From: Gemmatimonadales bacterium
GTDB taxonomy: Bacteria; Gemmatimonadota; Gemmatimonadetes; Gemmatimonadales; GWC2-71-9
DNA: 22,898 nucleotides
Assembly (NCBI GenBank): GCA_039794085.1
Contig: JBDIWC010000054.1
Coordinates: 1 to 22,898, forward strand
Direction: 5' to 3'
A program made the translations under genes and the position numbers. Of the stretch, positions 1-20,752 are shown piece after piece (position 1 is the stretch's first letter; each line of letters opens with the position of its first letter). The notes under the pieces were generated by a model. That model was not told the origin of the DNA. It did no database searches and saw nothing but the letters and a program-made list of their open reading frames with translations.

Positions 1-127
1 GTGCCGAAGAAACCGAGCCCCTGCCACGACCCGGGTACGGCTTGTTCCCCCGTGAACGTGATGGGCGAGGCGGCGGTTCCAACTGCTGACAGCGAACCCC
101 CACCCGTCACGAACATCCCCGTCCCCG
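1..127. repeat. Intragenic perfect direct repeat, copy at the window edge (identical to 583-709)
   Basis: Base-by-base identity with 583-709. The offset is 582 nt (194 codons), in frame. This copy is cut by the window edge. Confidence 0.95.
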
Positions 128-2843
128 AGCCGAAAATGAGCCGAGCCCCTGGCACGATCGTCAGGGACGTGCCGATTACCACTCCTTGGCCGACGCGGAT
201 CGGCAAACTGGTGATCTGCCACCTATGGGGGCCCCCAGCAACATTCTCATATCCAAGAATCCCCGGTGCACGGACATCAAGGTAGGGCCGGCCATTACCG
301 GTCAGATAGTCGGCCGCCGGGTCCAGTCCCCCCACCAGCGCAGCGGGAACCTGGAGCCCCGCGAATGCGTTGTCGCGGAGTGCTACTCCGGTGAACCCCA
401 CGAGAGCTCCGGTATGTCTGACCGTCAGGCCGGTGCCACTGCTATGGTGGATAACGCTCTGCGACACGCGCACACTGGCTCCACCTCCCACCATGACGTT
501 CGCGGGTTCGATGCCAATGAAAGGACCGCCTTGTTCACCGGCGTAGCCGACATCGACATGGGTGAGTTCGTTCGCGGAACTCGTGCCGAAGAAACCGAGC
601 CCCTGCCACGACCCGGGTACGGCTTGTTCCCCCGTGAACGTGATGGGCGAGGCGGCGGTTCCAACTGCTGACAGCGAACCCCCACCCGTCACGAACATCC
701 CCGTCCCCGTGGCGAAGGCGACGTTTGTTCCCGCAAGGATCCTGAGCGCCCCTGCAACAGAGATCGGGATGGCCACCAGGTAGTGAACGCAACCCACTGC
801 ACCTGGCGCCCACACTCCTTGAGCCTGCACTCCGTTGTTGATGATCGTGGGGGACGGGCAGGAACCAGGTCCGACCGTCACCCGTATGGTGGCTTTACCC
901 AGGCCTCCGGGCCCGGTACAGGCGATTGCATATTCCGTCGTGGTTGACGGACTCACTGTGACGGAGCCAGAGGTGCTTGTCATCTGTGTCCATGGCGCCG
1001 AGCAGGTTGACGCGTTCGTCGCCGACCAGCTCAACGTGGAGCTTTGCCCAGCACTGATGGTCACAGGATTCGCGCTCAAGCGTACTACCGGCGGCAGCCC
1101 CGTTGGAGATGTCGGGCACCCAGACGTCACGTTGGCCACCTCGTTCAGGATGCACACGACCTCCTCGATTAAAGGATCTGGATCAAACCCTCTATCCTGA
1201 TCACCACGTTGCATCTCGCTATGATCGTAACCATCGTGCACACTTCGCCGCTTCACCCAGTCTGGTAACGCCGATTTGGTCGTGACAACCCCATCATTCG
1301 GAGAAGGCAAGTTGAGGCTCGTCTGTTTGTACCACGGTGCTTCAAACAGATCTCCAACGCTACGCACGTCGAACGGGCGCAGGTTTCCTGCGAGCGCGTA
1401 GATCTTGGCACCGTCTGACATCGCGCCCTTGAGGTTGGCAATAACCAGGGACTTCGTACCCTGGTCGCGGACGCCGTTGCTAACGAACACCGGCGAGGCA
1501 AGGCACGCCAGGAAGAAGGTAACGCAACCGGCTGGATCGCTTCCCACCAGCGCATCGGCGATCTCCGTTCCCCCATGGGGACTACCCAACGTCACCAGTG
1601 CCTTGACCCGGCTTGAGCCATGCTGCCGCATATACTCTCTGGCCACGACCCCACCCATACTATGGCCCACGATAACCACGTCCTGGAAGGGCAGGTTCAT
1701 GATCGCGTTGGACAAGAACTCAGCAGCGGTCGCCACACTGTTAAAAGTCGTATACCGCAGAACGTAGCGCTGGTACTCATCCGGGATCCCCTCGTCGTTG
1801 AGAAGTCTCTCGAAGTCCTTCTCCGGTTGGTAGGTCCGGAAGTACCCGCAAAACAGTCCAAGTGGTTTCCATCCGTGAATGAAGATGAGGCCAGTTTCAG
1901 CTCCCGACGAGGAGGATCCCGTTGGGTATGCCTCGAGCTTGTTCTCTCCCTGAGTACACTGGATGTTAGTCCCCATGATCCTTGCTGCCGTAACCGAGAA
2001 CACGCCAGGAGACCGGACACTGTAGGCGATGGTCGACTGAGCATGACCCGTGATGGGAACAGTGAAGATCTCCGGGTTGGCGGTCACATAGCCGAACCGG
2101 GGCTCCGACACCGTTCCGAAGTTCAGAACACCATTTGTCTGCATGCCGGTTACCGATCCAGCTTGCCTGATCGTCAGAGTAACCGGGTTCGTCGTACTTG
2201 CTGCGGACTCCGAACCGGGAGAGAATGCGTTGCCGCTGGCGGGTTCTATCTCAATCGATATCGCTGGCGTGATCGCGGTCAGGTCCAGCTGACTGAACTC
2301 GGCTCCCTGCACATAGGCAACCTTCACGGTCACAGGACCGGCGGTACCCACCGCGTTTACTTCGACAAATGTCCCACCCCCCAGAGCCAAGGTGTCTATG
2401 TCACCTGGGTCGACTCGACTCTCTGTTTGTTCGATCACCTGAGCCATGAAAACAAGGTCGCGGTCCTGTGCCGAGAGGTTCACTGTGGCGACAGAATCCC
2501 CGCTTGGCAGGTAGCCGGGTGGCAGTCTCAGGGTAACCGTGTAATGGCCTGGATTGAGGCCAGTAAACCGGAACGCCCCGTCTGTGCCCGTCAGCGTGTT
2601 CCGAGAGAGACCCTGAGTACCGAGGAGGATTCGTACTTGAGGAATGGGCGTACCCCCAGTCGTACGAACCACCCCCGAGATCATCGCGGTCTGGGCTGGG
2701 GGCGGGGGTGGGGGGGGTAACGGCTCGGTTCCCCCGGTGCAACCGATCAACCATGACCCAATCACCACACCCAATAGCGACAGCCAGCGCCGCCTCGCGC
2801 AGAATGGCTGCCCTTCTATCGCTCCGACCAGGGGTCCTCCCAT
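1..2843 (-). CDS. Large multidomain lipoprotein: lipobox, poly-Pro linker, carboxypeptidase-regulatory-like (Cna-B-type) domain, alpha/beta-hydrolase (lipase/PGAP1-like) domain, Ig-like module, parallel beta-helix repeats; 3' end lies outside the window
   Basis: Hand translation of the minus strand from ATG 2843 (GGAGG SD upstream) gave no stop to the window edge. Begins MGGPLVGAIEGQPFCARRRWLSLLGVVIGSWLIG-C-TGGTEPLPPPPPPP. Motifs: TGTDGAFRFTGLNPGHYTV; oxyanion-type IFIHG (~1872-1886); nucleophile elbow GHSMGG (1650-1667); LVTLGSPHGGT; NDGVV (1284-1298); YDH (1221-1229); LSANPVTISAGQSSTLSWSATNASTC; then the repeated GGSLSAVGTAASPITFTGEQAVPGSWQGL. Probably missing from the ORF track because it has no stop in the window. 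Confidence 0.9.
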   Translation of the reverse strand, partial: MGGPLVGAIEGQPFCARRRWLSLLGVVIGSWLIGCTGGTEPLPPPPPPPAQTAMISGVVRTTGGTPIPQVRILLGTQGLSRNTLTGTDGAFRFTGLNPGHYTVTLRLPPGYLPSGDSVATVNLSAQDRDLVFMAQVIEQTESRVDPGDIDTLALGGGTFVEVNAVGTAGPVTVKVAYVQGAEFSQLDLTAITPAISIEIEPASGNAFSPGSESAASTTNPVTLTIRQAGSVTGMQTNGVLNFGTVSEPRFGYVTANPEIFTVPITGHAQSTIAYSVRSPGVFSVTAARIMGTNIQCTQGENKLEAYPTGSSSSGAETGLIFIHGWKPLGLFCGYFRTYQPEKDFERLLNDEGIPDEYQRYVLRYTTFNSVATAAEFLSNAIMNLPFQDVVIVGHSMGGVVAREYMRQHGSSRVKALVTLGSPHGGTEIADALVGSDPAGCVTFFLACLASPVFVSNGVRDQGTKSLVIANLKGAMSDGAKIYALAGNLRPFDVRSVGDLFEAPWYKQTSLNLPSPNDGVVTTKSALPDWVKRRSVHDGYDHSEMQRGDQDRGFDPDPLIEEVVCILNEVANVTSGCPTSPTGLPPVVRLSANPVTISAGQSSTLSWSATNASTCSAPWTQMTSTSGSVTVSPSTTTEYAIACTGPGGLGKATIRVTVGPGSCPSPTIINNGVQAQGVWAPGAVGCVHYLVAIPISVAGALRILAGTNVAFATGTGMFVTGGGSLSAVGTAASPITFTGEQAVPGSWQGLGFFGTSSANELTHVDVGYAGEQGGPFIGIEPANVMVGGGASVRVSQSVIHHSSGTGLTVRHTGALVGFTGVALRDNAFAGLQVPAALVGGLDPAADYLTGNGRPYLDVRAPGILGYENVAGGPHRWQITSLPIRVGQGVVIGTSLTIVPGARLIFGSGTGMFVTGGGSLSAVGTAASPITFTGEQAVPGSWQGLGFFG
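583..709. repeat. Intragenic perfect direct repeat, second copy
   Basis: gtgccgaagaaaccgagccc...acgaacatccccgtccccg is identical to 1-127 and diverges abruptly after 709. Confidence 0.95.
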
Positions 2844-2926
2844 ACTGTCACCTCCGATGTGATCTCACGATGTCGGCTCCGCCACCAACAGGTGGAACAT
2901 GTCCTGACGACGGAGTCTCGACAGCG

Positions 2927-3652
2927 CTACATGTCCCCAAGGGTCTCCCCGATCTGCATGAATCCTCCAACGGCAATGGCCGCCGTGCTCACCAGCGTCA
3001 GGTACAGGCCAATGGCCGCGATGCCGAACAAGCTCCGGCCGGCAACGGTGGCCAGCAGGACAACCGCCACCCAGAATGAGCCGAGGAAGAGGAACCAACG
3101 GGCGCGAAGAGCACGCTGTCGGGGGGCGGCCTTGATGTTCAGGTATGACAGGAAGAAACACGTACCAAATGACAGAGGCAGCACCCACAACAGGCCGCTG
3201 ACCTGCTGCGCCATCGCGAAGCCGCTTGCGCTGCCTCCGAACCCGCCAAACCAGGGAAGGAAGAACGCGACCACGCCAGCGGTTGACGCGAACACCACGG
3301 CCTTCTCGGCACCCGTTCCAGCGGCCCGGAATGTCTGAAGCACGGAGTGCTGAATGACGCTCGCCGTAGCCTCGGCGGCCGCGGAAGTCCGGGCTGCCGC
3401 GGAGGCCACGCGCGCCCGCACAGCGTCCTCCCGAGAGGCTTGAGGTGGCGGCGGTGGCGGTGTATACGGGCCTGCAGGCGACGGATCGTGAGCGACCACG
3501 ACATCCGCGTAGCGCCGCCAGCTTCCGGCTCCCTCTTCGATGACCGGAGTGCCCTCGGCCACCACGCCCGACGCGCGGAGGCTTTGCAGGACGTCGAGGG
3601 ACACCGGGCCCACCGTATTCTGGTTCTGGTCAGCGTAGTAATACGTTGGCAT
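2927..3652 (-). CDS. GYF_2 (DUF4339)-domain membrane protein
   Basis: ATG 3652 preceded by GAGGAG. N-terminus YYYADQNQNTVGPVSLDVLQSLRASGVVAEGTPVIEEGAGSW matches the GYF_2 pattern, followed by a Pro-rich linker and about four hydrophobic helices including AFFLPWF. The ORF-track start at 4060 is overextended. Confidence 0.85.
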   Translation of the reverse strand: MPTYYYADQNQNTVGPVSLDVLQSLRASGVVAEGTPVIEEGAGSWRRYADVVVAHDPSPAGPYTPPPPPPQASREDAVRARVASAAARTSAAAEATASVIQHSVLQTFRAAGTGAEKAVVFASTAGVVAFFLPWFGGFGGSASGFAMAQQVSGLLWVLPLSFGTCFFLSYLNIKAAPRQRALRARWFLFLGSFWVAVVLLATVAGRSLFGIAAIGLYLTLVSTAAIAVGGFMQIGETLGDM

Positions 3653-3845
3653 GGCTCCTCTCTTCCCATGACATTGACGAGTCCCTACGGGGTGACCTGA
3701 GTGCGCTATCCTCTTCTCGACGGTTCCCGTTACCGCCGAGCGCTCTCCTCCGTTGCTTTTCCCAGCCCCTGATGCAACGGCCCGTGTCGCGCGGCACGAA
3801 CTCCCACGTCCTATTCCCAACACCCTCGCACCCCTTCGAGACGGT

Positions 3846-6269
3846 CTATCGCAGCGTGAGCAGTGTTTCTCCCGAGTGCCCGGTCGTACACCTCCATGTG
3901 CCCCCGAGTTGTCTCTCCTCACGCAATGACAACTCGTAGGTACAACCGAGAGCGGCGTTACCTCGGCGGATGTAGTGCATCTCGGTGAATACGATGGTAG
4001 GACCAACCAGCGCACCGGAGACAGAGTGAACCGCTTCGAGCGAAGGCCAGTCAACTTCACCCGTGAGTCTGCCCGACGGGGCGTCGAATGTCAGCACTTT
4101 AAGTCGCATGGGCCATCGCTCACTCGCAGTCCAGGACTCCCCCTTCCAGACATGCGAGGACTCCGCGAGGAGCTCCCTCATGCGGCTCACCTGGCCGCTC
4201 TCTCTCGCAACCGTGGCCGTAGCCTCTTGCGGTGCACGCCGAGCCGCGTTTGTTGGCTGCGTCGGATAGACTGGTTCAGGGCCGACCGGGGTACCGGCGG
4301 TGCTGTCCCTATTCCGGATCCTTTCAATCAGCACCGACACGACCTTCTTATGATCAGATTGGCGCGCACGCTCCAAGGCTGTGGCGCCACGATGGACCTC
4401 TGTTGGATCTGCCCCTGCGTCCAACAGGATCGCAACAACGGCGTCGTTCCCTGCAGCTGCAGCTGCATGGAGTGGGGGCACCGGCTCATATTCTCCGCCT
4501 CCCGCGAGAGGAGCGCCAGCGTCTATTAGAGCACGGACCACACTTTCGTGCCCCTTGCTCGCTGCCATTCCCAGCGCCGTCAGACCTGAACCCTCCTCCG
4601 AGACATCGAGACGGGCACCGGCCGCCACCAGAGCCTGCACAACCCCAAGGTGACCATGGCTCGCGGCCTCCATCAGGGGCGTGTGTGATGCCTTATATCC
4701 AAACCCCTCATTGACATCAGCCCCAGCGCTGATCAGCTGTGACACAACACGAGCATCACCGCCTGCTGCCGCGCAACCCAACGCCGTCGGTGATCCACCG
4801 TCCTCCGAATATGGTTCTGCCGTTGACACGGACTTCCTTGCCAGGTCAACGCGCAATGCGACGGACACGGTGTCCACCTGACATCCTGAGGGACCCTGCA
4901 GGCTCAGGCGTTCTCGTTGAAGGGTCAGGTGTAGAACATCGGTACTCGGCCACTCGAGGGAGTGCGGCTCGACGCGGACATCACCACCAGCATTCAGAAG
5001 CGCGACCGTCTCGATGTGGCCGTCAGGGTTGGGAATGTCCGTGCTCATGAGCGTGGTAACCACGTCGCTCCCATCCTGGGATATCCACTCTGCTACCAAG
5101 GTGAGGAGCTTGCCATCAGGCGCCCACTGGCCGGGTTGTGGGAGGTACAGGGCGGCCCCTACTGGAAGCGCGGACAAGAGATCGCCGGACAATACGCGCT
5201 GCGAATCGGGATGTACGATCCATGCGTAGAATCGTGTGTCAGTCGCGTACTCCACCGGGACTGTGCCAAACGTGAGAATCCTGTAGCCATGACTGCTGGG
5301 ACGGGATAGCAGGATGTAATAGTCGCTCAGGTAGTTTGCCATCCCCGGCTTGACCCTGAACGGGACGGCATTCGCTCCGACGCAGATCTCTCCTGTGGCA
5401 AGATAGGAAATCGCTCCAATCGCGTCCTGTTCGGGGGTGACCATCAGTTGGCTATCCGGAAGACTCTTTGCCACACTCTTCCGGCGGCCCAACAGCCGGT
5501 CGACGAAGCTCCTCCGGGAGTGTGAACGCCCTGCTGCCTGAGCCGCACAACGGCGTGAGGCGATCGTGTCAATGACTCCGGTCGGGGAGGGTTGCTTGCT
5601 GAGTGCTGCCTCCATGTCTGGTCCTTGGGATGCAGCAGCTGGGCGCGCGCCAGTGGACGCCACTCCCGGAATGTCGTCACAGCTGATTGCGTGGCCAGCG
5701 ATATCGGAAAACGCGCTTATCATACCCGACAACCACCCCTCGCCACCGCTCGGGGCGGCCATCCACTCGCCGTTCACGCGAGCCACGGGGACCCGTGCGA
5801 AAGGATCCTCACGCGCCTTCCAGTCGTTCCATCCCTCGCGGTACTGCCCACCGATCATGTAGGTAACCGCCTCCCACCGGTATTCACGCGACGCGCGAGC
5901 ATAAAACGCCGCGCTGCCCTTCCAGTCGATGCCGTTCAGCTTGTCGGCCTCGGTGACGACAAGAGGAGTCACAGCCGCCCGTACCCCCCGCATCTGCACT
6001 ATCGCGGCTTTCGACATCAGTTGCTCGTCTCGCAATGTGTAGTAGGAATCACCACACTTTGTCCACTGAGAAGCGAGCGTGCTCTCCGCGACCCGCATCG
6101 CACGACCGGACGACGCGTTGTCACACGCTGCCACAGTCAGGGCAACAGCTATGGCCACGAGAGGCGCAATGGCACGACGTCCGGATCCTCGAGTTGCAGC
6201 CGGGTGGCACCACACAAGGCTGCTTGCGCCCCACGAGCGCAACCCATACTCCTTGTCATACATGATCAT
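3846..6269 (-). CDS. Ankyrin-repeat-containing putative lipoprotein
   Basis: GGAGGAG SD 8 nt before ATG 6269 (start uncertain). Hydrophobic stretch ending LTVAA-C. About four ankyrin repeats at ~4330-4800 (TALGCAAAGG, TPLMEAASHGHLGVVQALVAAGA, TALGMAASKGHESVVRALIDAGA, PPLHAAAAAGNDAVVAILLDAGAD). Beta-rich C-terminal domain of ~110 aa. Confidence 0.85.
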   Translation of the reverse strand: MIMYDKEYGLRSWGASSLVWCHPAATRGSGRRAIAPLVAIAVALTVAACDNASSGRAMRVAESTLASQWTKCGDSYYTLRDEQLMSKAAIVQMRGVRAAVTPLVVTEADKLNGIDWKGSAAFYARASREYRWEAVTYMIGGQYREGWNDWKAREDPFARVPVARVNGEWMAAPSGGEGWLSGMISAFSDIAGHAISCDDIPGVASTGARPAAASQGPDMEAALSKQPSPTGVIDTIASRRCAAQAAGRSHSRRSFVDRLLGRRKSVAKSLPDSQLMVTPEQDAIGAISYLATGEICVGANAVPFRVKPGMANYLSDYYILLSRPSSHGYRILTFGTVPVEYATDTRFYAWIVHPDSQRVLSGDLLSALPVGAALYLPQPGQWAPDGKLLTLVAEWISQDGSDVVTTLMSTDIPNPDGHIETVALLNAGGDVRVEPHSLEWPSTDVLHLTLQRERLSLQGPSGCQVDTVSVALRVDLARKSVSTAEPYSEDGGSPTALGCAAAGGDARVVSQLISAGADVNEGFGYKASHTPLMEAASHGHLGVVQALVAAGARLDVSEEGSGLTALGMAASKGHESVVRALIDAGAPLAGGGEYEPVPPLHAAAAAGNDAVVAILLDAGADPTEVHRGATALERARQSDHKKVVSVLIERIRNRDSTAGTPVGPEPVYPTQPTNAARRAPQEATATVARESGQVSRMRELLAESSHVWKGESWTASERWPMRLKVLTFDAPSGRLTGEVDWPSLEAVHSVSGALVGPTIVFTEMHYIRRGNAALGCTYELSLREERQLGGTWRCTTGHSGETLLTLR

Positions 6270-6614
6270 ACAGGTGGCTCCTCCCCATGGCCACAAGTCG
6301 TACCCGCTCGACCCACTTCGTAAAGACCACCAACCAGTCACCGATCCGAGGGGAACTCCCCCCCCCCACCGTGCCCCCCGCATTACTCGTATAGTGTCGC
6401 CAACGTGTCATTCCCTTTGTTGACCTTTGTCACGATGTCGCGGAAGGTGGCGGTCCAAACGAGGGAAGTGGGGGTGGGTGATCACCTTCTTCATCGGCCA
6501 GGTCGCCCCCACCATAACCGGCAGAACCGCGTTGAGGTCCTCCAGACCCGCCTGCACACACAACCCACTGGCTCCCAGAGCACGACACCACGTCCAAGGC
6601 CGGCAGCGGAAGAG

Positions 6615-7112
6615 TCAAGCCAATCCCCTCGCTTTCACGACCACCGTACCAGCGATCTTGTCGTGCCATGCCTGGGCGTTCTTGTCGACAATCGCCCAGA
6701 GGTATCCGAGTCCAAACACGATGCCGCTCAGAAACCGTCCCACGACCTCGCGCACGAACATCTTGCCGAAGCCAGGAATGCCCCCGGTTTGCTGGTCCAC
6801 TACCTGCAGACCGAGCAGCTTCTTGCCGGGGCTCAGTCCTTGCCGCATCAGACTCAGGTACCAGATCACGTACAGGATTGGGAGCAGAACCGCGGCCATG
6901 ACCCCCACGTCTTCAGACCCGGTCATGCCACCCAGAACAGCAATCCCTCCGAAGTACAGCAGCACCGCGATCAGCGGATCGAGCGTCAGGGCCACCCACC
7001 GGGCGAACAGGCCGGCCTTCCGGCCCAATCCGGGTGCCGGGATATACGCGTTGCACCAATTACAGAAGAACGAGTCGGGAGGGGTTTCCTTTGCACATGA
7101 CGGGCAGTTCAT
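6615..7112 (-). CDS. RDD family membrane protein with N-terminal zinc ribbon
   Basis: GGAGG SD before ATG 7112. MNCPSC...FCNWC zinc ribbon. RDD hallmarks ARWVALTLD, SPGKKLLGLQVV, VRE and QAWHDKIAGTVVV. Confidence 0.92.
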   Translation of the reverse strand: MNCPSCAKETPPDSFFCNWCNAYIPAPGLGRKAGLFARWVALTLDPLIAVLLYFGGIAVLGGMTGSEDVGVMAAVLLPILYVIWYLSLMRQGLSPGKKLLGLQVVDQQTGGIPGFGKMFVREVVGRFLSGIVFGLGYLWAIVDKNAQAWHDKIAGTVVVKARGLA

Positions 7113-7252
7113 TCTGACCTCCGGCTCGCTGAGGTTATTGATCAACAGGTCGGGCAAAGCAGGCGGAAGGACCTTTACCCATTCGCAGGTGGTGGCCTCC
7201 CGGTGGACCAGGCCGGTCTCGAGGCCGTCGGCTCCCCGGCCCCAGGCTCTGG

Positions 7253-8107
7253 CTACAGCGGTGGAATCGCCACGGCCCCACGCTTGCGCACGGCGAGCCC
7301 CTGGGAAGCCACGGTTGCGACCTCGCGTGCATTCATGTAACTCTGCGCAGTGGTGAACACCGAACCGTACAGGGCCTGTAGCTTGGGATAGAGCGGCCGG
7401 AGGAGGGCGGGATCGTCCAGAAGCGCAATGCGCGCTTGTTCCGGTGTCATGGCTGCGGTCGCGTACTTGTTGTCACTTGTGAACGAGAACGCCTCCGATG
7501 GTATATCGATGCTTCGAGTCCACATGCGGGTGTTCGTCACCGGTTCCTTCAATGAGAGGGTGACGCGGCCACCCAGAGACGCAGTGCCATTGAGCCGGTT
7601 GTAAGTACCCGTCTTCTTGATGATGCCACCCAGACCGGATTGTTCAACCACGGAGAGCGCTGTGACTTCAACATCCATTTGTAGCTCTGGTTCGAGGAGC
7701 AGCTGGGATGCCTCACGATCAGGGAAAACCATCGCCTCGAAGGAGTCAAAGGGTCCTCTGGCCAGATAGCCCAGGCAGGTCGCCAGCTCCATGAAGTCGC
7801 CTTGCATCGCATTGGATAGATCGGCGAAGAGCTGGGGGGCGGAGGCAGCCGAGTATCCCCGCGTCCAGGCGGGCTGGATCGGGCTCTGCCACCTTGGTGC
7901 GACGATTGCGAGGGTGATTTTGGTCGAACCGGGCTGCTGGCATGTCGTCGGCGTGAAATCGTAACTCGGCCTCGGCACCGGAGCCGCTGCCGGTGCTGAT
8001 TGCGAGCTCATGCAGCCCAATGCACTAGCCAAGGGCGAGAGCAATACCAGCAAGTGCATCGCGGTTCGAGGCGCGGGTACGGAAAGACGGCTGAAATTGT
8101 GGCGCAT
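7253..8107 (-). CDS. Lipoprotein resembling the HpaA / neuraminyllactose-binding hemagglutinin (NLBH) family
   Basis: Lipobox SALG-C after LLVLLSPLA (alternative start 8059). Segments GYLARGPFDSFEAMVFPDRE, GRVTLSLKEPVTNTRMWTRSIDI and the C-terminal helix LQALYGSVFTTAQSYMNAREVATVASQGLAVRKR parallel the HpaA layout as I recall it. Family call made by eye. Confidence 0.65.
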   Translation of the reverse strand: MRHNFSRLSVPAPRTAMHLLVLLSPLASALGCMSSQSAPAAAPVPRPSYDFTPTTCQQPGSTKITLAIVAPRWQSPIQPAWTRGYSAASAPQLFADLSNAMQGDFMELATCLGYLARGPFDSFEAMVFPDREASQLLLEPELQMDVEVTALSVVEQSGLGGIIKKTGTYNRLNGTASLGGRVTLSLKEPVTNTRMWTRSIDIPSEAFSFTSDNKYATAAMTPEQARIALLDDPALLRPLYPKLQALYGSVFTTAQSYMNAREVATVASQGLAVRKRGAVAIPPL

Positions 8108-8280
8108 TTGGATCCTCGAGTACCCTTGGGGTGACCAGGGAAACGTGCCGACGACAAGGTGTGGTGGTGGAGTTGACCCAGTTTCGTGGACACCTCCTTC
8201 GTTGGGGAAGGAGGACGTCCTGATGCCGAAGCAGCGGCTATCCACCGAACCGGGGCAACTTCACTCAGCGCGACCCCACC

Positions 8281-8309
8281 TTGCCGCCTCCGCCCCCCGG
8301 CCCTAACTT
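8281..8309 (+). promoter_or_regulatory. Putative sigma70 promoter (TTGCCG-N17-TAACTT) facing the SARP remnant and the ClpP operon
   Basis: Both hexamers are identical in the two repeat copies, while three spacer positions differ. Confidence 0.55.
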
Positions 8310-8388
8310 CCCCGGTGCGACCCAAGACAAGTCCGGCCCGACGAACGCAGCGACGACAAGGCGTGGTGGTATCCAACCTCCACCCCAG

Positions 8389-8406
8389 GCGTGACAGCGG
8401 CGTCAC
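8389..8406. promoter_or_regulatory. Putative SARP-type box, heptamer direct repeat GCGTGAC-N4-GCGTCAC (also reads as GTGAC-N6-GTCAC inverted repeat)
   Basis: Heptamers with 11-bp period directly before the ATG. Fully conserved in copy 2. Confidence 0.45.
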
Positions 8407-8604
8407 ATGACGACCAGCACAGGGATCCCCTCCCCCGATTTCCCGGCGGCCCCCGGTTCGTTTCACCTCCGAACCCTTGGCACCTTAGGGATTTACGCGC
8501 CCGGTGGGTGTCTCCGTCTCGGTCCCGGCCTCCCCTTGTCCCTCCTGACGCACCTGAAGGCCATGCCGGGCAGTCGGCCCGGCGGGAACACCTGGCCCCT
8601 GTAG
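8407..8604 (+). pseudogene. Truncated, frameshifted 5' fragment of the SARP/BTAD regulator
   Basis: MTTSTGIPSPDFPAAPGSFHLRTLGTLGIYAPGGCLRLGPGLPL matches the N-terminus of 12015..16001. ATGCCGGGCAG here vs ATGCCGGGGCAG there is a -1 frameshift. Homology ends at 8597. Confidence 0.88.
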
Positions 8605-8642
8605 ACTTCTTCACCCCACCAGCAGGAGAGGGCCGCGCGCAC

Positions 8643-9821
8643 ATGGAAGCCAACACCACAATCCTCGATCGGGTCCGTGCGGTACCGGCCCAGCGCCGGG
8701 TTTTCCTTCCGCTCGGATTCTCTCGGGACGAGGCCGGCCGGTGCACCGCCGAGATCCTGCGATTGAGCGCCGAGAACCACAACGATATGCTCCTCTGGCT
8801 CCCCCCCTATGGCAGCCTGCATGGGTCCCTGGCGCTGGGCGACCTCCTCGCCACCGGGGGCACCGCCCCCGTGATCGGCCTCCTCTGGGGCGAGGCCCGA
8901 ACCGCCACCCCTGCCCTCCTCCAGACCTGCGCGCCTCGACTCATCACTCCCCATGCCACCCTCGCCCCGCGGCGGATCGACTCCGTCTTCCAGACCTCGG
9001 CGAGCCGCATGAATGGACCGCCCGGGGGCGCGGAGACCGTTCTGGGTGAACTCCGGAATGCACTGACGAGCCTCAAGCAGGACGCAGCACACCGCGTGTG
9101 GCAGCGCATCAGTACCCGGATCGGTGTCACGATCTCTGACCTCATGACCGACGTGGCGGACCGGCCGGCCTGGAACGCCGGCGAGTCGGTCAGACTTGGC
9201 TGGGCGGACGCCGTCCTGCAGGGCCGGCATGCCGACCTGGATCACGAACCGACCCCTCCCACGGTTCGGCGCCTCGCCATGGATGCCGTGCAATCGGAAC
9301 GGGTGGTTCGGATCCAGGCGGAGCTCATCGCCGACATGGTCGCCGCCTCGATCGCGCTTCTGTTCCGGCTCAGCCAGGAAGGGGCCCAGCCCCTTCTCGT
9401 GTTGTTCGAAGGAGACACCGCGGACTTCCCCGCGACCACCGCCCTTCTCGACCACCTCGCGATGGTGCCCTGCACGGTCGTGGGATTGGCGAGCGGCACT
9501 CTCGGCCTGCTCGACACCGCCGCCCTGCAGGGGTGCACGATCCGGGCGGCCCGTGCCACCGCCTCGTTCCACCTGGCTGTGCGGACCGACTGGACCCAGG
9601 CCGAGATCACCATCACGGAAGAGATGCCGCCGGAGGAGGCGGAGCGGATGTTTCTTTTGGAAGCCGGACGGATCGGGACCCGCGCTGTCGCGGTGGCAGA
9701 GGTGCTCGCTTCCCGGAGCCGAGTGGCGGCCGAGGAATGGTCTCGTCGCATGAAGGGGGCGGTGATGATGTCGGCGGAGGAGGCGGTCTCTGACGGAGTG
9801 CTGGATGTCCTCCTCGACTGA
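8643..9821 (+). CDS. Tandem double ClpP-fold protein, both domains lacking the catalytic triad (ClpR-like pseudoprotease)
   Basis: ATG 8643 with upstream GGAG (the ORF-track start 8391 runs through the repeat). Domain 1: RRVFL..AEILRLSAEN..PVIGLLWGEARTAT..WNAGESVRLGWADAVL. Domain 2: ERVVRI..TVVGLASGTLGLL..MMSAEEAVSDGVLDVLL. Each aligns by eye to full-length ClpP, with the Ser/His/Asp positions substituted. Confidence 0.8.
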   Translation: MEANTTILDRVRAVPAQRRVFLPLGFSRDEAGRCTAEILRLSAENHNDMLLWLPPYGSLHGSLALGDLLATGGTAPVIGLLWGEARTATPALLQTCAPRLITPHATLAPRRIDSVFQTSASRMNGPPGGAETVLGELRNALTSLKQDAAHRVWQRISTRIGVTISDLMTDVADRPAWNAGESVRLGWADAVLQGRHADLDHEPTPPTVRRLAMDAVQSERVVRIQAELIADMVAASIALLFRLSQEGAQPLLVLFEGDTADFPATTALLDHLAMVPCTVVGLASGTLGLLDTAALQGCTIRAARATASFHLAVRTDWTQAEITITEEMPPEEAERMFLLEAGRIGTRAVAVAEVLASRSRVAAEEWSRRMKGAVMMSAEEAVSDGVLDVLLD

Positions 9822-10401
9822 GCCACACGGGACGCCCGCCACCGAGCGGGAAGTCCCCGGGCTCCCCATCATCGAGCCCGGCCGAGTCCTGAGTTGCATC
9901 GGGGCGGTACGCTGGTACCGCACGTCCCCCCTGGCGGATGAGTTGCTGCGGCTGGGCAGGATCGCCGACAAGCCGATCCTGCTGGTCATCGACTCCCCCG
10001 GTGGCGACTCCAACGCGGCGGACGCCCTCCATACCGTCATCAACCTGATTCAAGCCCCGGTGATTGGGCTCGTCGCAACCCGGGCCTGCTCCGCCGGGTG
10101 TGAGATCCTCCAGGCGTGTCGTGTGCGGTTGGCATTCCCGTCCTCGGCGCTCCTGGTGCACTTCTCCTCCATCACGTCCACCGAGCCCTTGACTCAGGCG
10201 AATGCGGATGCCCGGAATGTATTCTCGCAACAGCGTCGCGCCGCCCAAGAAGTCCAGTGGGCCACCGAGGTCAGAACCTTGGCCAAGCGCACCGGAATGG
10301 AGCTGGAGGCCGCCAGGCAGCTCCTGACCGAAGACCGGATCCTTCCGGCCAGGGAGGCGCTCGCCCTCGGCTTGCTGGATGGGATCGTGGGAGGGAAGTG
10401 A
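9805..10401 (+). CDS. Divergent ClpP-family serine protease (S14) with intact triad
   Basis: ILLVIDSPGG, ACSAG (Ser), LLVH (His), LAKRTG, TEDRILPAREALALGLLDGIV (Asp). Overlaps the upstream gene by 17 nt, with a GGAG SD. Not in a tig-clpP-clpX context, so no gene symbol is given. Confidence 0.92.
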   Translation: MSSSTEPHGTPATEREVPGLPIIEPGRVLSCIGAVRWYRTSPLADELLRLGRIADKPILLVIDSPGGDSNAADALHTVINLIQAPVIGLVATRACSAGCEILQACRVRLAFPSSALLVHFSSITSTEPLTQANADARNVFSQQRRAAQEVQWATEVRTLAKRTGMELEAARQLLTEDRILPAREALALGLLDGIVGGK

Positions 10402-10669
10402 TGTAGCGCCACGAATGGGGGGCGAGCTGCTCCCTTTTCTTACGATGGTGAATCCTGGCAGATGGGTTCAACGGGAAGTCCGAGAGTTCGGCGCTCACCC
10501 ATTTGGGAACCCGGGATACCAGAACGAGCTCCAGTGCCCAGCGAACGAACCGCATTGCCATCGGCATAGAGAAGCCCAATGACGGAAGTGGTACGAAGGA
10601 GTGTGTCCCATCTTCAGTGCAGTGTGCGGCCCGTCCACCGAGCCCTTGGCCCACCGCCCAGAAAGCGGA

Positions 10670-11828: not shown

Positions 11829-11888
11829 TCTTCCCTCCCTGTGTGGCAAACGAATGGTGAGACCGATATGGCCACCCGATACCCCACC

Positions 11889-11917
11889 TTGCCGCCTCCA
11901 CCCCCCGACCGTAACTT
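11889..11917 (+). promoter_or_regulatory. Putative sigma70 promoter of the SARP regulator (TTGCCG-N17-TAACTT)
   Basis: Near-consensus hexamers with a 17-nt spacer, ~100 nt upstream of ATG 12015. Confidence 0.55.
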
Positions 11918-11996
11918 CCCCGGTGCAACCCAAGACAAGCCCGGCCCGACGAACGCAGCGACGACAAGGCGTGGTGGCATCCAACCTCCACCCAGG

Positions 11997-12014
11997 GCGT
12001 GACAGCGGCGTCAC
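11997..12014. promoter_or_regulatory. Putative SARP-type heptamer direct repeat GCGTGAC-N4-GCGTCAC
   Basis: Abuts the SARP ATG. The 11-bp periodicity is typical of SARP boxes. Confidence 0.45.
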
Positions 12015-15000
12015 ATGACGACCAGCACAGGCATCTCCTCCCCCGATTCCCCGGCGGCCCCCGGTTCGTTTCACCTCCGAACCCTTGGCACGGTGGGCCT
12101 TTACGCGCCCGACGGGAGCCTCCGTCTCGGTCCCGGCCTCCCTCTCGCCCTCCTGACCTACCTGAAGGCCATGCCGGGGCAGTCGGCCCGGCGGGAGCAC
12201 CTGGCCGACACCTTCTGGGCCACCAGCGACGCCAGTCACTCCCGGCAGGCCCTCCGCCAGACCCTGACCCGTCTTCGGGTCGTTCTCGGACCGGAGGCCT
12301 TCGACGACCAGCACTCCGAGCTCCACCTCCGCGTCCCCCTGGCAGCGGACTTCCTCCAGTTCGTCGACGCCGTCGAGACCCGGGAGTTCGACCGGGCCCT
12401 GTCCCTCTATGAGGGTGAGTTCTTCCCCGAATACGGAAGCCCCGGATCCGCCGATTTCGAACAGTGGGTCGACGTGGAGCGGGAGCGCTTCCGGCGGCTC
12501 TTTCTCCGGATCGCCGAAGCGGCGGGCCGCGACGCCCTGGACCGGGGCGCCTCCCGGGAGGCGGTCCTCCTGGGTCGCCGGATGCAATGGGAAGTCCCCG
12601 CCTCCCAGGCCGGTACCCGCCTTCTCCTCGAAGCTCTGCTCGCCACAGGAAACCAGGACCTCGCCAGGGCCGAGGCCGATCTTGCCCTGGGGAAACTCCG
12701 CGAGGCGGGCCGCGACCCCGAGGCGGCCACGATCAGGGTCATCCAGAGCCTGGACAACCCGGCCCGGATCCCCCGGGAGGATCCCTCCCCCGAGGGGGAT
12801 CTCCTCGCCGCGCTGGTCGGGCGGGAACGAGAGTTCCGATCCCTGATCGATGCGTGGAACCAGGCCCGCCAGGGCCCCGCCATCGAGGTCTGCATCACGG
12901 GAGCCGCCGGACTCGGCAAGACCCGGCTCCTGAAGGATTTCTGCCTTCGTTTGAAGACTCTCGGCGCCCGGTTCCTGGCGGCACGCGCGCTGCCAGGGGA
13001 GCGAGGTCTCGACTTTGCGCTGGTCGGAGACCTGGTGGGTGCCCTCGCCGAAATGCCGGGAGCCAAGGGCGTCTCCCACCAATCGGCCGCGGTACTGGTC
13101 GGGATCAATCCGGCCCTTTCCGCAACCTATCCCCAGCAGCCGGCACCGGCGAGCGACAACGCCATTCATCGCCGCGCCCTGGCTGTCCTTGACCTGGTGC
13201 GAGCAGTCGCCGACGAGGCGCCACTCGCCCTGCTGATCGACGATCTGCACTGGGCCGACGAGGCGTCCCTCCAGGTGCTCTCGTTCCTCGCCGGCCGCCT
13301 GGGCGGGGTCCGCGTGATGCTGGTGACCGCGAGCCGCCCGTCGGATCATGCGCTGGATCCCGCCCTCTGCGGTCTCCGGCTTCACCTCGCTCCACTCCCT
13401 CCGGCGGACATCCAGGATCTGATCGAGAGTCTCGCCACCTTCCCCCCCGGGGCCACCTGGGGTCCGAGGGTCGCGGAGATTCTGCAGCAGACAACGGCCG
13501 GTTCTCCGCTCCTGGTACTCGAGACGCTTCGGTTGAGCATCGAGGAGGGCGACCTGCTCCGCACGGACGGCGTGTGGGAGACGGCGGAGCCGGAGAAGAT
13601 GCTGCGTCGCCTCGCCCAGTCCGATGTGCTCGCACTGCGCCTGGCGTCCCTCCCCAAGGAGGCGAGACACCTTCTCCTCTGCCTGGCCGTCGCGGGGGTT
13701 CCGCTCACGGACGAGGAAGTGGCCGCCGTGGGAGGGGACAAGGAACCGCTAGGGCTCTTGGAGCAGGCCGGGTCGTGTCATCACAGCCGGGCAGGATGGG
13801 AGTCGACTCACGACGAGTTGTCCGCCGCTGCCCTCCGCCTGGCCACGCCCGAGGAGTCGGCCCAGGCTCACCTCACGATCGGGCGATTGTTCGGGGAGCG
13901 GGCCACGGGGCTCCTGGGCTTCCGGCGCGCGGCGGCACACCTCCTTCAGGGCGGAGGACACCAGGATCTGGAACTCCTGGTCCGCCGGTGGATAGCGGCC
14001 GCCCGACGCACCGGCGACCAGAGAGGGGCGCGCACGCTCGTCACCGACCTGTTGGGCGACCTGACCCCGGCATCCGAGGTACGCCGGTTCACCCGTCGGG
14101 TTCCCCTCTCCCTGCGCTGGGGCCGACAGAGAGTGGCGGTGACAGCCGCCATGGCGGTCCTCGCGGGGTCCGTCGCCGCCCTCGCCAACGCCGGGCGGAC
14201 CCCGGAAGCTCCCCCGGATGCGGTCCTCGTCGTTCCCTCTCGCCCGTCCGGCTCGAACAGCTCCCTCATACTTGCACAGATCTCCGTCCGCCGGCGGGAG
14301 TGGTCGGGCGTGGACACAATTCGTCCGAACCGCACTACACGAGCGACGACCCTGACTTCCAAGCGGGGTGACTGGCCTCTCACTCCCATTGGAAGTGAAG
14401 GCCGGCTGGTCTACCCCGAGTCCTGGCCCGATTCGGGAGGTGTTGACCTGACCCTGCGTGAGAGTGACGGAACCCTTCGGCGGCTTACCCATGCCCGGGG
14501 TGACGACATCGACCCCAGCCCATCTCCGGATGGCCGGTATCTCGTCTTCAGTACCGGACGATGGCGCGGACCGGCGAGCCAGGATCTTGCAATCCTGGAT
14601 CTGGAGAGCTCGACGGTGCGTCGACTCACCCACGGCCCCGGTCGCGACACCAGCCCGCAGTGGTCTCCGGATGGAACCCGCGTTGCTTTCCTCCGCTACC
14701 ATCCCGAAGAGGACGCGAGTCACCTCTGCTGGACAACCGTTGACGCGGTCACCACCAGGTGCGGCCCCACCGCCGTCTCCCCGGACGGGCGGGTCCACGC
14801 GTGGAGTGGCCCTCTCCACATCATCTTCGACGAAGCGAGCGACGGCTTTTACCGCCTCGCCATCATGCGGTTGTGGCCTGAGGAAGATCAGGTTCCCCTC
14901 GACTCGACCGCGACGGGCCGATTCGTTGTCAGCCCGGATGGCCGTTGGGCATTGACGCTTCCCGGGACCCGCGCCCCTGGAGAAGAGCAGTACTTTTTCC

Positions 15001-16001: not shown

Positions 16002-16070
16002 CTTGGTCGGTGCTGGGTCAGGGCTGGGTCCTCCTGTTTCACCTCGGCTGAAGCGGAGGCGATGCCTTCT

Positions 16071-16290
16071 GTGGGTGCGCCGCTTGCGGCGCACACGCGG
16101 GAACCGGCCCGCAGGTTCTTCCCACAGGTAGGGGCACGGCGGCGTGGATCGTAATCCCCGGGGGCTTTCGCCCCGGGCTCGGCTCTGCGGCCGTTCACAC
16201 GGCCGGGCGCACCGGAATCATGCCCGAAGGGGCATCGTCCTTCCCAGCCCCGGGTTGCGGTGTGGGTGCGCCGCAAGCGGCGCACCCACA
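16071..16290. repeat. Cluster of REP-like palindromes
   Basis: GTGGGTGCGCCGC-TT-GCGGCGCAC (16071-16094), CCCGGGGGC-TTTC-GCCCCGGG (~16157-16177), and perfect 14-bp arms TGTGGGTGCGCCGC-AA-GCGGCGCACCCACA (16261-16290). Confidence 0.8.
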
Positions 16291-16294
16291 ACAT

Positions 16295-16473
16295 GCCACA
16301 GTTCCACCCACGAACGACGAAGACCAGGCGAGACGGCCGCTGCTTCGACACCGCGCCGTGTTCCGCTCACGGGATCGCCACGGACTCCTGCGGAGTCCTC
16401 GCGATGACGACCCCGGCGTCCTTTCAGGACCCGTCGCCGAAGGCGCCGAGGCCGGGCTTCAGCCCGGTGATCG
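16295..16473. repeat. ~180-bp direct repeat, copy 1 (matches 18242-18419)
   Basis: Shared ccacccacgaacgacgaag..cttcgacaccgcgccgt..ccgctcacgggatcgccacggactcct-cggagtcctcgcgatgac..caggacccgtcgccgaaggcgccgag..gggcttcagcccgg. Confidence 0.92.
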
Positions 16474-16565
16474 TGGGTGCAACGGAAGAATGGACCCCGG
16501 CGTTCGCCGGGGTGACGATCCTGCTCGGGTTGAGATCCGGCGTCCTCCAGGACCCGTCGCCTCCT

Positions 16566-17759
16566 TCAGGCCTCTCTCCACTCGTCACCCGGCATGATCC
16601 GCCGCATGAACTCATCGAACAGCGGCACCGTGAACGCGGTGTCCCCATGGAAGGGACTGTAGATCATCCCCTTCGCGATCAACTGGGCTCGGGTCGGAGC
16701 CACTGACGTGACAGCTCTCTTCATGACGTCGGCGATATCCCCCGACCGATGGGGACCAGGTCCCAGCTCCGCCATGGCCCGGAGATACCGCTTCTCGAGC
16801 GGCGTGAGTCGATCAAACCTCACCCGGAAGAAACTCTCATCAAGCGCTGCGACGGCGCTCCGGGACGCCTCCCGCACGTCCTGGATCGTGATCGGCGACC
16901 TCTCCGCCACCTCCCAGGTGTGCTTGCCCCATTCCTGGACGAAATAGGGATAGCCACTCGTCTCCCTGACGATTTGATCCAGTGCGTCCTCCGTAATCTC
17001 CACGCCGAGGGCGCCCACGGGCACTTTCACCGCCTGCTTGGCATCCGTGGCCGACAGCGGCCCGACCTCGGGGAAGTCGAAGAGACGCTCGGCGTAGGAC
17101 TTGGCGCTTCCCATCCGGCCCCGCAGCTGCGGGAGCCCCGCGCCGACGACGACAACCGGGAGTCGCCGCTGGGCCGTGCGGTGGAGTGCCGTGATCAAGG
17201 CTTCGAGCTGCGGTTCCTCGACGTACTGGAGTTCGTCGACGAAGATCGCCAAGGCAGTTTTCGCCTTCTGAACAGCCTGTCCCACAACTTCCAGGAGCGC
17301 CTGGAGATCGTGCTCGAGATCTCCATTGTCGGCCAAGCCCGGCTCCGGCTCGACGTCGAATCCGACCTCGATGTCTCCATACTTGACCTTGAGACCCTTG
17401 GCAAAACCTGCCAGGCCCCGGAGCCCTCGAATGGCAAGGTCCTTCGCCTTGGCGTTCCGGGAAATCCGCAGCAGGCCCTGGCGGAGTTGCGGCGCGAGGA
17501 TCGCGGGAAGGGAACGGTTCTCCGGTGCCTCGATGCGCAGGGTCTGGATGCCCGAGGCCTCCGCATCATCCCGCATCCGGTCCAACAGGACGGTCTTCCC
17601 CACCCCGCGGAGCCCCACCATGAGGACGCTCTTGGTGGGCAGCCCCCGCCGCACTCTCTCCAGGGCGACGCGTACTGTTTCCCGGAGCTCGTCTCGGCCG
17701 GCCAGCTCCGGCGGCGGGGTTCCCGCACCGGGCGCAAACGGGTTGGTCACTGGATCCAT
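16566..17759 (-). CDS. Stand-alone AAA/STAND-like ATP-binding protein with probable C-terminal winged helix
   Basis: NPFAPGAGTPPPELAGRD, Walker A GLRGVGKT, Walker B IFVDELQ, GAGLP, SYAERLF, GYPYFVQEWG; C-terminal RSGDIAD..RAQLIAKGMIY..FTVPLFDEF. Confidence 0.93.
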   Translation of the reverse strand: MDPVTNPFAPGAGTPPPELAGRDELRETVRVALERVRRGLPTKSVLMVGLRGVGKTVLLDRMRDDAEASGIQTLRIEAPENRSLPAILAPQLRQGLLRISRNAKAKDLAIRGLRGLAGFAKGLKVKYGDIEVGFDVEPEPGLADNGDLEHDLQALLEVVGQAVQKAKTALAIFVDELQYVEEPQLEALITALHRTAQRRLPVVVVGAGLPQLRGRMGSAKSYAERLFDFPEVGPLSATDAKQAVKVPVGALGVEITEDALDQIVRETSGYPYFVQEWGKHTWEVAERSPITIQDVREASRSAVAALDESFFRVRFDRLTPLEKRYLRAMAELGPGPHRSGDIADVMKRAVTSVAPTRAQLIAKGMIYSPFHGDTAFTVPLFDEFMRRIMPGDEWREA

Positions 17760-17793: not shown

Positions 17794-17959
17794 GTTCGTA
17801 TAAATCACCTAATATCCATCAAACTCTGCTCGCCCTGTCAACCTTCATTGCCCTCGGACGGTGATCAGCCTTCCCCCGTGGGCCGGCCGGGGCATTGAGG
17901 CGATTCGAGGTATCCTGGAGGAATTTCCCGCCGAGCGGCTGGTGGACGCCACACCCCCT

Positions 17960-18035
17960 GTGGGTGCGCCGCGTGCGGCGCACCTGGGAAGATCCGACTT
18001 CCCTGCTCCTGGTGCGCCGCACGCGGCGCACCTAC
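17960..18035. repeat. Inverted REP doublet (REPIN-like)
   Basis: GTGGGTGCGCCGCGTGCGGCGCACC (17960-17984) and, on the opposite strand, GTAGGTGCGCCGCGTGCGGCGCACC (18011-18035), with a 26-nt spacer. Same family as the palindromes at 16071 and 16261. Confidence 0.85.
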
Positions 18036-18075
18036 GACGGGACACCAACAAGGCGGTAGGCGAGGGGCGGTTCTA

Positions 18076-18191
18076 GGCGGTGGGCGGTAGGCGGTAGGGG
18101 AAAAGCGGTCACTGCAAGGGCCCGATCCCCCCTCTCCCGCCCTGCGGGAGAGGGGCCGGGGGTGAGGGTGTACGGACAGGGTGGGATTCGA
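18076..18191. repeat. Copy of the tRNA-Ser 3' end (19 nt) plus ~95 nt of its downstream flank
   Basis: Matches 18436-18550. Includes GGCGGT(A/G) heptamers, a CCCCTCTCCCGC..GCGGGAGAGGGG hairpin and cggacagggtgggattcga. Confidence 0.93.
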
Positions 18192-18241
18192 TGCGCAGCC
18201 CGCCGCCCCGGCGGGCGAAGCAGAGCGAGGACCGCGCAGCG

Positions 18242-18419
18242 GCCGCAGCTCCACCCACGAACGACGAAGGCCAGGCGAGATGGCCGCCGCTTCGACACCG
18301 CGCCGTCCTCCGCTCACGGGATCGCCACGGACTCCTTCGGAGTCCTCGCGATGACAACTCCCGTGTCCTTCAGGACCCGTCGCCGAAGGCGCCGAGCGCG
18401 GGCTTCAGCCCGGGGATCG
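18242..18419. repeat. ~180-bp direct repeat, copy 2 (matches 16295-16473)
   Basis: See copy 1. Confidence 0.92.
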
Positions 18420-18435
18420 CGCACTGCAAGCGATT

Positions 18436-18550
18436 GGCGGTGGGCGGTAGGCGGTAGGGGAAAAGCGGTCACGCAAGGGCCCGACCCCCCTCTCCCGCCT
18501 CTGCGGGAGAGGGGCCGGGGGTGAGGGTGTACGGACAGGGTGGGATTCGA
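18436..18550. repeat. tRNA 3' end and flank, duplicated at 18076-18191
   Basis: Near-identical to 18076-18191 with a few 1-nt indels. Confidence 0.93.
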
Positions 18551-18618
18551 ACCCACGATACCCTTGCGGGTACACCGGTTTTCGAGACCGGCTCCTTCAG
18601 CCACTCGGACACCTGTCC
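18532..18618 (-). tRNA. tRNA-Ser (anticodon CGA)
   Basis: GGACAGG TGTCCGAGTGGCTGAAGGAG CCGGT-CT-CGA-AA-ACCGG, long variable arm TGTACCCGCAAGGGTATC, GTGGG-TTCGAAT-CCCAC CCTGTCC G. 87 nt, discriminator G, CCA not encoded. Confidence 0.97.
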
Positions 18619-18830
18619 AGACGAAACCCCAAAGGGCTTCACGAGTAAATCTACCAACAAATCAGCCGGTTTTCCACCGGGAGAGCCAGTCGGCTCACAT
18701 GGCGGGACATTGTCCCAGACCCCTGTTCTCGCTATCCTTGGGCCCGGTTCCCGGAGGCCACCTCCGGGCCCTCCATGGCCCCGAAATCGTTCCCTGCTGC
18801 TGAAAGTCCCCCGTGTCCCCCGCCGAGACA

Positions 18831-20480: not shown

Positions 20481-20568
20481 TCAATCACCGGAGTCATCCC
20501 GAGCCGAAGGCGAGGGATCTGAGGAGGTCGCGGGTGGACTTCCCGGCGGCTGCGGCACCCGCCGTCCT

Positions 20569-20722
20569 GGGGGTGACTGGGGAGGCCCAATACCCAGAAC
20601 CCAATACCCGGGGGGGGACTGGGGAGGCCCAATACCCGATACCCAATACCCAATACCCAGAACCCGATACCCGGTGGGGGGGACTGGGGGGCCCAACACC
20701 CAATACCCAGAGCCCGATACCT
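20569..20722. repeat. Composite array: three GG(G/T)GACTGGGG(A/G)GGCCCAA units, each followed by CCCAATA/CCCAGAA/CCCGATA heptamers
   Basis: Read directly from the sequence between the converging prfC and LTA-synthase-family genes. Confidence 0.85.
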
Positions 20723-20752
20723 GGTGTGCGGAGTGGCTGGGTGTTGGGGACT

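Follow-up and report, generated by a model that had tools for sequence, protein, structure and literature searches.

A rare accessory cassette of a Gemmatimonadales genome joins two triad-less ClpP-type domains in one chain beside a divergent ClpP with an intact triad

The 22,898-nt stretch of DNA analysed here (hereafter the window), which is the whole contig C54 of a 4.16-Mb, 94.7% complete Gemmatimonadales genome, carries two overlapping genes, A and B, that make up an A1-A2-B unit which is conserved yet very rare. By sequence comparison, all three encoded domains have the ClpP fold and the catalytic triad is found in B alone. We estimate at roughly 55% the probability that this unit encodes a heteromeric, ClpP/ClpR-like accessory peptidase, with A1 and A2 as neighbouring scaffold subunits, B as the holder of the sole active sites, and weak or absent coupling to the host ClpX. 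The trio with two dead types and the fused doublet are particular to this cassette; in the full-text literature, a scope that leaves out most subscription papers, we found no description of a tandem dead ClpP or of an A1/A2/B trio.

ORF translation confirmed the 17-nt overlap of the 392-aa and 198-aa genes reported in the initial annotation, and every motif quoted there was present in the translations of A and B (Table 1). The absence of tig, clpX and clpA from the window, also claimed there, was borne out by a Pfam scan of its 12 ORFs.

Table 1. Features of the gene pair and its flanks (window positions)
Feature	Position	Strand	Description
Gene A	8643..9821	+	ATG to stop, 392 aa; two triad-less ClpP-fold domains in one chain
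Domain A1 (dead ClpP type 1)	8643..9218	+	Residues 1-192; assigned from triad columns, orthologs P0004-P0007 and clade 100/98
Linker A1-A2	9219..9257	+	~13 residues; derived from former A1/A2 gene overlap and A2 leader
Domain A2 (dead ClpP type 2)	9258..9821	+	Residues 206-392; assigned from triad columns, orthologs P0008-P0010 and clade 100/100
Gene B	9805..10401	+	ATG to stop, 198 aa; divergent ClpP with intact triad and oxyanion Gly-Gly
A/B overlap	9805..9821	+	17 nt; B start codon inside conserved C-terminal Asp codon of A2
Terminator-like hairpin with T run	10417..10443	+	Directly 3' of gene B
Decayed BTAD/AAA regulator remnant	8273..8597	+	Copy of 11881-12206: upstream region and first ~64 codons

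Using Pfam alone, CLP_protease (PF00574) was recognised in residues 213-389 of A (E 4.2e-6, over the cut-off) and in residues 31-195 of B (E 3.3e-17, 63.4 bits for a cut-off of 20.2), and no match was obtained for domain A1. A profile built from A1 and its relatives gave 56 matches among PDB sequences, all 56 named ClpP (best E 1.1e-6); the A2 profile gave 71, the best 60 of which are all ClpP, and the same holds for the best 60 of the 106 PDB matches of gene B. Profile-profile comparison yielded probabilities of 97.7% for A1 with B, 98.3% for A2 with B and 97.5% for A1 with A2. The claim that gene A consists of two ClpP-like folds is upheld by these comparisons.

The structural model of gene A, computed from a 10-row alignment in which the first ~50 residues of the A2 rows were misplaced onto domain 1, shows ClpP-like secondary structure in both halves (pLDDT 58.9, pTM 0.40); as a tandem model it is weak and silent on domain packing, which we counted against the heteromer reading. 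A single-sequence fold (pLDDT 37) was set aside. The best fold matches of the model are ClpP chains, mostly via domain 2 (A2 with ClpP: Z 12.2, rmsd 6.2, 161 residues aligned). Membership of the crotonase family was rejected, crotonases reaching a Z of at most 8.9 versus 12.2 for ClpP and being absent from the listed profile matches of A1 and A2. Checked in this way by profile matches and fold comparison, each half is S14/ClpP-like as opposed to S49 or crotonase. A prediction of the A+B complex, each chain with its own alignment, scored 0.19 and 0.02 for a mark of 0.32, with no control complex folded alongside.

In the joint alignment with host ClpP, the triad columns of B hold S96/H119/D177 (Ser, His and Asp codons at 10090, 10159 and 10333, respectively), its oxyanion pair G66-G67 aligns with host ClpP, and Ser, His and Asp are invariant in all seven B-type rows. 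The same columns read T87/R110/R174 in A1 and L289/A312/A373 in A2, and the triad is broken in 9/9 A1/A2 rows, as expected from the proposal that it had been lost in both halves of A and kept in B. By comparison, both subunit types are catalytic in the ClpP1P2 hetero-tetradecamers of mycobacteria and Listeria.

Gene A also resembles SppA (S49), which has two ClpP-fold domains per chain, a likeness that concerns the fused forms only. SppA relies on a Ser/Lys dyad and a membrane anchor. Neither nucleophile column of gene A (Thr87, Leu289) holds Ser, neither of its two Lys residues (145 and 371) is invariant in its alignment, and the top 19-residue hydropathy of its first 40 residues is 0.33. The SppA features are therefore not evident in A, as had been noted before: the dyad is absent and there is no N-terminal hydrophobic segment. 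Moreover, the listed profile matches of gene A go to ClpP.

When 1.84 billion representatives were scanned in full with HMMER, 17 proteins came up: the query A itself, one complete tandem (P0003, 34%), four single-domain proteins of A1 type plus two fragments, three single-domain proteins of A2 type, the fragment P0012 (which starts in the A1 tail and runs into A2), two members of another dead type (P0013 and P0017), a Patescibacteria-like ClpP (P0018) and two repeat-type proteins. The single-domain orthologs of A1 (P0004-P0007) show 36-42% identity and those of A2 (P0008-P0010) 30-31%. A B-profile search gave seven proteins including the query, and word-index searches with A and B alone found nothing but A and B themselves. 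We dropped P0011 and P0016, two long proteins that match the linker region in short, repeated stretches, as well as P0026, the ends of which look chimeric and resemble adapter read-through; P0015 and near-identical cluster members were left out of the trees.

Four overlapping samples of 400 genomes, drawn from the family, the order, the class and the phylum, were all devoid of the cassette, in keeping with the accessory nature proposed for the unit. It was likewise absent from 60 relatives of the genome carrying locus L009 (see below), and among 40 close relatives a single genome (G038) gave a weak match alone (E 0.009). There was no match in plasmids and no further copy in the host genome; among the sequencing runs, no RNA run is listed as carrying the locus, and run X6 covers about 214 nt of A.

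In the phylogenetic trees, the A1 clade (100/98) and the A2 clade (100/100), both starred, are accompanied by a B group in which four of five rows stand together at 100/99 and P0025 joins at 93/82. A1, A2 and B thus form three clades, separate from the host clpP genes, indicating that each subunit type was kept while diverging to 25-45% identity. It should be noted that A1 and A2 of the window have the longest branches of their clades, a point counted against the heteromer reading.

P0013 and P0017 represent a further dead ClpP type, the handle of which mixes A1-like and A2-like motifs; together with the active P0025, the group is possibly a two-gene ancestor of the trio. The contigs of P0017 and P0025 are both 2812 long, which suggests linkage. 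Linkage is suggested in the same manner for P0005 and P0008, both on contigs 4525 long, and for P0023 and P0024 by N-termini which carry the letters that the 17-nt overlap would force. P0018, in whose cluster one member is labelled Patescibacteria, shares an LQAC-x-x-R motif and a long handle with the cassette. ClpP-like proteins of Patescibacteria and large phages are 25-30% identical and show no supported grouping with A1, A2 or B; jumbo-phage ClpP gave weak matches at 26-29%.

The cassette was read as DNA at three loci, namely the window, L006 and L009, one of the latter two being a Gemmatimonadetes MAG; L007 and L008 are near-identical copies of L006. L006 and L009 both encode A1, A2 and B, in this order, as individual genes that overlap, and the A2/B overlap is 17 nt, as is that of A and B in the window. 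Linkage and order are therefore kept where the gene pair was found elsewhere. In L009, A1 (2237-2821) is split by a frameshift near 2400, reflecting either decay or an assembly error, and B is truncated at the contig end.

Besides A, the fusion was seen in one full protein (P0003) and one probable fragment (P0012) among 14 relatives, the remaining relatives of A being single domains or fragments. The fusion is thus optional; L006 and L009 are unfused. The split form is at least as common as the fused one, which occurs in at least two, probably three, diverged proteins. When a single origin was tested, the A2 domains of fused rows as one clade gave a p-AU of 0.444, and the fused A1 rows grouped at 71/88.

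The spacing that separates the last conserved A1 Asp and the first-strand A2 Arg amounts to 31 residues in 3/3 fused forms, compared with about 30 and 32 codons in the loci with separate genes. At all five unfused junctions the Asp codon is GAT, which gives the next ATG, versus 32/89 for Asp overall; since the three loci share ancestry, these junctions are not independent. In the fused junction of the window the Asp codon is GAC, hence the A2 ATG is gone, and one indel at the A1/A2 overlap suffices to fuse the genes. This junction codon and the conserved spacing indicate that the doublet is a read-through of an existing overlap, and the doublet in turn implies that, in the product, A1 ends close to where A2 begins.

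These observations revise the interpretation first given to the gene pair. Its S14/ClpP-like halves, conserved linkage and order and accessory status stand; doubling as a conserved feature does not. In particular, the idea that the covalent doubling fixes the ring stoichiometry is weakened, because L006 and L009 have three separate genes and most relatives are single-domain: the fusion cannot be what the system needs for setting its stoichiometry.

The genomic settings of the three loci have no neighbour in common. L006 lies in an island of lower GC3 that also contains IS21 and genes for an AAA ATPase, DegT, an OGFr-domain protein and Fic; beyond the island come genes sharing 66-76% identity with those of the window genome. 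An operon-like run of unknown genes (L006 positions 2791-9549) adjoins the IS21 element and holds the 605-aa AAA ATPase, a weak match to PADLOC IetA, and the DegT-family aminotransferase. The L009 cassette adjoins a PcfJ-like gene on the opposite strand, then a metallophosphoesterase gene.

Such neighbours, together with the sporadic distribution, an inhibitor-first gene order with overlaps and the Fic protein of the L006 island (a PADLOC SoFic match of 134 bits beside IS21, AAA ATPase and OGFr genes), would suit a toxin-antitoxin-like or defence switch, in which a gate-less, harmful B is held off by A1/A2 until a phage or stress trigger leads to growth arrest. We consider this unlikely. None of five cassette proteins (A, B and three relatives) matches PADLOC-DB 2.0 at E 0.001, which speaks against a catalogued anti-phage system and leaves room for an undescribed one. 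The window neighbours are lipoprotein-like, RDD, ankyrin, beta-helix and regulator genes and not defence genes, the lack of a common neighbour points the same way, and a frameshifted A1 in L009 ill fits an essential antidote, if the break is real. A ClpP-like phage prohead protease was also considered, and placement in a head-gene module was not found: the scanned neighbours of the cassette in the window, L006 and L009 include neither a portal nor a capsid family. In viral scans A1 had three weak matches (E 1e-4) and B had none, and the PHROG matches of B are weak.

The evolutionary constraint on the cassette could be followed in soil run X5, from another study, a contig of which covers 8296-10597 with 194 substitutions in 2302 nt (about 92% identical). 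Its gap positions number 11, six upstream, two downstream and three corresponding to one net +3 insertion in B, so that the 1179 nt of A contain no indel versus eight in 543 flanking nt (binomial p 1e-3 to 7e-5). In A, seven of 11 changed codons are non-synonymous (12 substitutions, among 40 of 375 alignment rows), which corresponds to a dN/dS of roughly 0.5, calculated by hand from a tiny sample with stop codons further on remaining possible. On these comparisons the reading frame looks protected, and amino-acid constraint in the window lineage looks moderate. The X5 contig has 1339 extra letters at window positions 10597-10633, directly after the cassette.

We therefore weighed whether the cassette is a decaying passenger, that is, a heteromer once functional elsewhere and now drifting, with the fusion as an accidental read-through. 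The long branches of the window A domains, the share of non-synonymous codons in X5, the frameshift in L009 A1, the single indel that is enough for fusion and a position behind a broken regulator remnant are all in line with it; the absence of indels from A in X5, with an in-frame one in B and eight in the flanks, is not, and neither are the intact triad of B, the fusion in several diverged proteins and a GC3 of 0.83, near the 0.80-0.89 of neighbouring host genes. On balance, decay appears improbable.

The remnant in question is 91% identical to 11881-12206 over 326 nt, with a 1-nt deletion near 8568, and its ATG at 8407 is out of frame with gene A; in X5 this ATG is also out of frame, via other indels. 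A reading of gene A as the product of an N-terminal BTAD regulator fusion split by an assembly error was rejected on account of the X5 indels and of the X1 and X2 contigs, which lack such an indel. The duplicated segment (8273-8597/11881-12206) comprises a divergent intergenic region and the 5' end of a 1328-aa BTAD/AAA/PD40 regulator, each copy having a secreted-looking gene on the opposite strand; the genome holds seven BTAD matches. The remnant is not part of the conserved cassette, and the sequences that precede the cassette in L006 and L009 contain no comparable one. It probably supplies the cassette promoter; a promoter scan of the cassette region revealed no sigma-70-like promoter. Downstream, the hairpin is plausible solely for its position, since the scan for terminator-type hairpins gave seven sites in 2.7 kb versus 1.3 in shuffles.

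According to PMC9035409, canonical ClpP requires handle, oligomerisation-sensor, cleft and gate elements. B is like canonical ClpP (S14, PF00574) in its fold, Ser-His-Asp triad and oxyanion Gly-Gly, whereas its handle is longer (45-47 residues) and without the Gln-Pro motif, and its sensor and cleft residues are changed; it missed both housekeeping ClpP models, TIGR00493 (36.2 vs 308.6 bits) and PRK00277 (45.4 vs 249). Overall, the handle region spans 45-52 residues in the cassette compared to 36 in host ClpP (9-16 longer), and the handle Gln-Pro after the His, the sensor Arg and the cleft Tyr are missing from nearly all cassette rows. For example, the sensor column holds Glu in window B and Arg in four of eight B rows, and the cleft Tyr-Tyr columns read, as alignment columns only, Leu/Val in B, Leu/Trp in A1 and Leu/Leu in A2. 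A1 is devoid of the N-terminal gate segment and starts at helix A in a low-confidence model. By analogy with canonical ClpP, the missing handle motif and ring sensor could make B incapable of forming an active double ring. A1 and A2 each keep conserved handle sequences of their own, which fits specific contacts among the three subunits and leads us to infer a dedicated heteromer.

The remodelled gate, handle, sensor and cleft aromatics make the usual docking on host ClpX improbable. This bears on whether the dead subunits, with or without B, could join host ClpP rings and retune or poison ClpXP. The host does possess a tig-clpP-clpX locus on contig C6, a second clpP on C49 and a ClpX with an IGF loop, and no ATPase of its own adjoins the cassette at any locus. 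We nevertheless regard such mixing as very improbable: identity of the cassette proteins to host ClpP is about 22-27%, handle and cleft residues differ from host ClpP, an active B stands beside A1/A2 in 3/3 loci read as DNA, and an LQxC-x-x-R motif is common to A1, A2 and B and not found in host ClpP. Host ClpP itself is 86% identical to the ClpP of a Gemmatimonadetes genome.

Least probable of all is an arrangement in separate rings, with A1 and A2 alternating in an even all-dead ring (e.g., four doublets) that caps or activates a B-only ring, as it requires a symmetry mismatch or a non-heptameric B ring and the profile matches listed are all ClpP, without SppA, even if a doublet tiles an even ring without B, the same-fold tandem SppA is among the fold matches (Z 10.1, rmsd 18.5) and apicoplast ClpP and ClpR form separate homoheptamers (PMC7966870).

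The window surroundings are compatible with a variable region. Extended similarity between the window and two genomes of the same genus does not set in until the tRNA-Ser gene at 18531, at its edge or just within it, which gives the 18 kb to the left the look of a variable region lying behind the tRNA; this comparison scored 40 candidates per genome in fragmented assemblies whose contigs end near the tRNA. This suggests that the tRNA-Ser site is an integration hotspot; no integrase was seen in the window. The tRNA-Ser(CGA) gene spans 18531-18619, and a 78-nt repeat including its 3' end is found at 18114-18191, 359 nt away. Palindromic REP-like repeats occur at 16055-16561 and 17944-18419, and recur many times in G001 and G002, the two genomes of the same genus; between the two repeat stretches of the window lies a lone 397-aa STAND-like AAA_16 ATPase gene (16566-17759, minus strand), a weak PADLOC mad8 match that nothing ties to the cassette. 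Elsewhere in the window, a 947-aa lipoprotein-like ORF with an alpha/beta hydrolase domain (3-2843, minus strand) is cut by the contig end and repeats its residues 1-134 at 583-716 (99%), and short imperfect C/A-rich direct repeats stand at 20566-20770, between prfC and a sulfatase-family gene.

For the preferred heteromer, we propose that a mobile or accessory three-cistron cassette (A1, A2 and B) would encode a distinct serine peptidase of ClpP fold, hetero-oligomeric in its make-up. The overlap between stop and start codons would couple translation and thereby yield roughly matched subunit amounts. A1 and A2 would lie side by side in the ring, so that their read-through fusion would be tolerated, and would act as scaffold and allosteric partners while B would supply all active sites. 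If the ring is heptameric, the fused form could close it only together with B: two copies of A with three of B, for instance, would give the ratio of four dead to three active subunits of the plastid R-ring, which has three ClpP1 and four ClpR (PMC7966870; 10.1101/2021.07.26.453741). Possible substrates of the predicted complex are peptides or unfolded proteins, which it may cleave without ATP. A bolder version, which we consider unlikely, would be a self-contained, ATP-independent protease whose three kinds of subunit each take a set place in the ring and whose co-evolved dead pair, fused here into a natural ClpP dimer, gates the active subunit until a stress or phage signal, in effect a new and possibly non-heptameric conflict module.

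A1 and A2 fit, by profiles and joint alignment, the definition of ClpR as a ClpP homologue without the catalytic triad (PMC7966870), and the motif that they share with B and that host ClpP lacks suggests an independent loss of the triad. The cassette is like the ClpP/ClpR cores (cyanobacterial ClpP3R, the plastid R-ring and the apicoplast complex) in combining an active subunit with triad-less paralogues, and like the plastid R-ring (three ClpP1 with ClpR1-4) in having more than one dead type. Those cores (PMC7966870; 10.1101/2021.07.26.453741) are essential, ATPase-coupled and housekeeping, with single-domain ClpR. In contrast, the cassette is rare and accessory, has its own divergent active subunit and no linked ATPase, and encodes its two dead types in tandem, sometimes fused.

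The rarity of the cassette and the absence of a phenotype limit its weight. Cyanobacteria, plastids and apicoplasts are the settings from which dead ClpP subunits have been described; there they are indispensable and difficult to take apart experimentally. The dead/active ClpP design seems to have arisen independently in this small bacterial cassette, which is non-essential and has two types of dead subunit, and its split and fused versions constitute a natural experiment on the role and ring position of pseudo-subunits. Moreover, a natural S14 tandem would demonstrate that a covalent link between adjacent ring subunits is possible, and could aid the construction of ClpP rings with defined positions.
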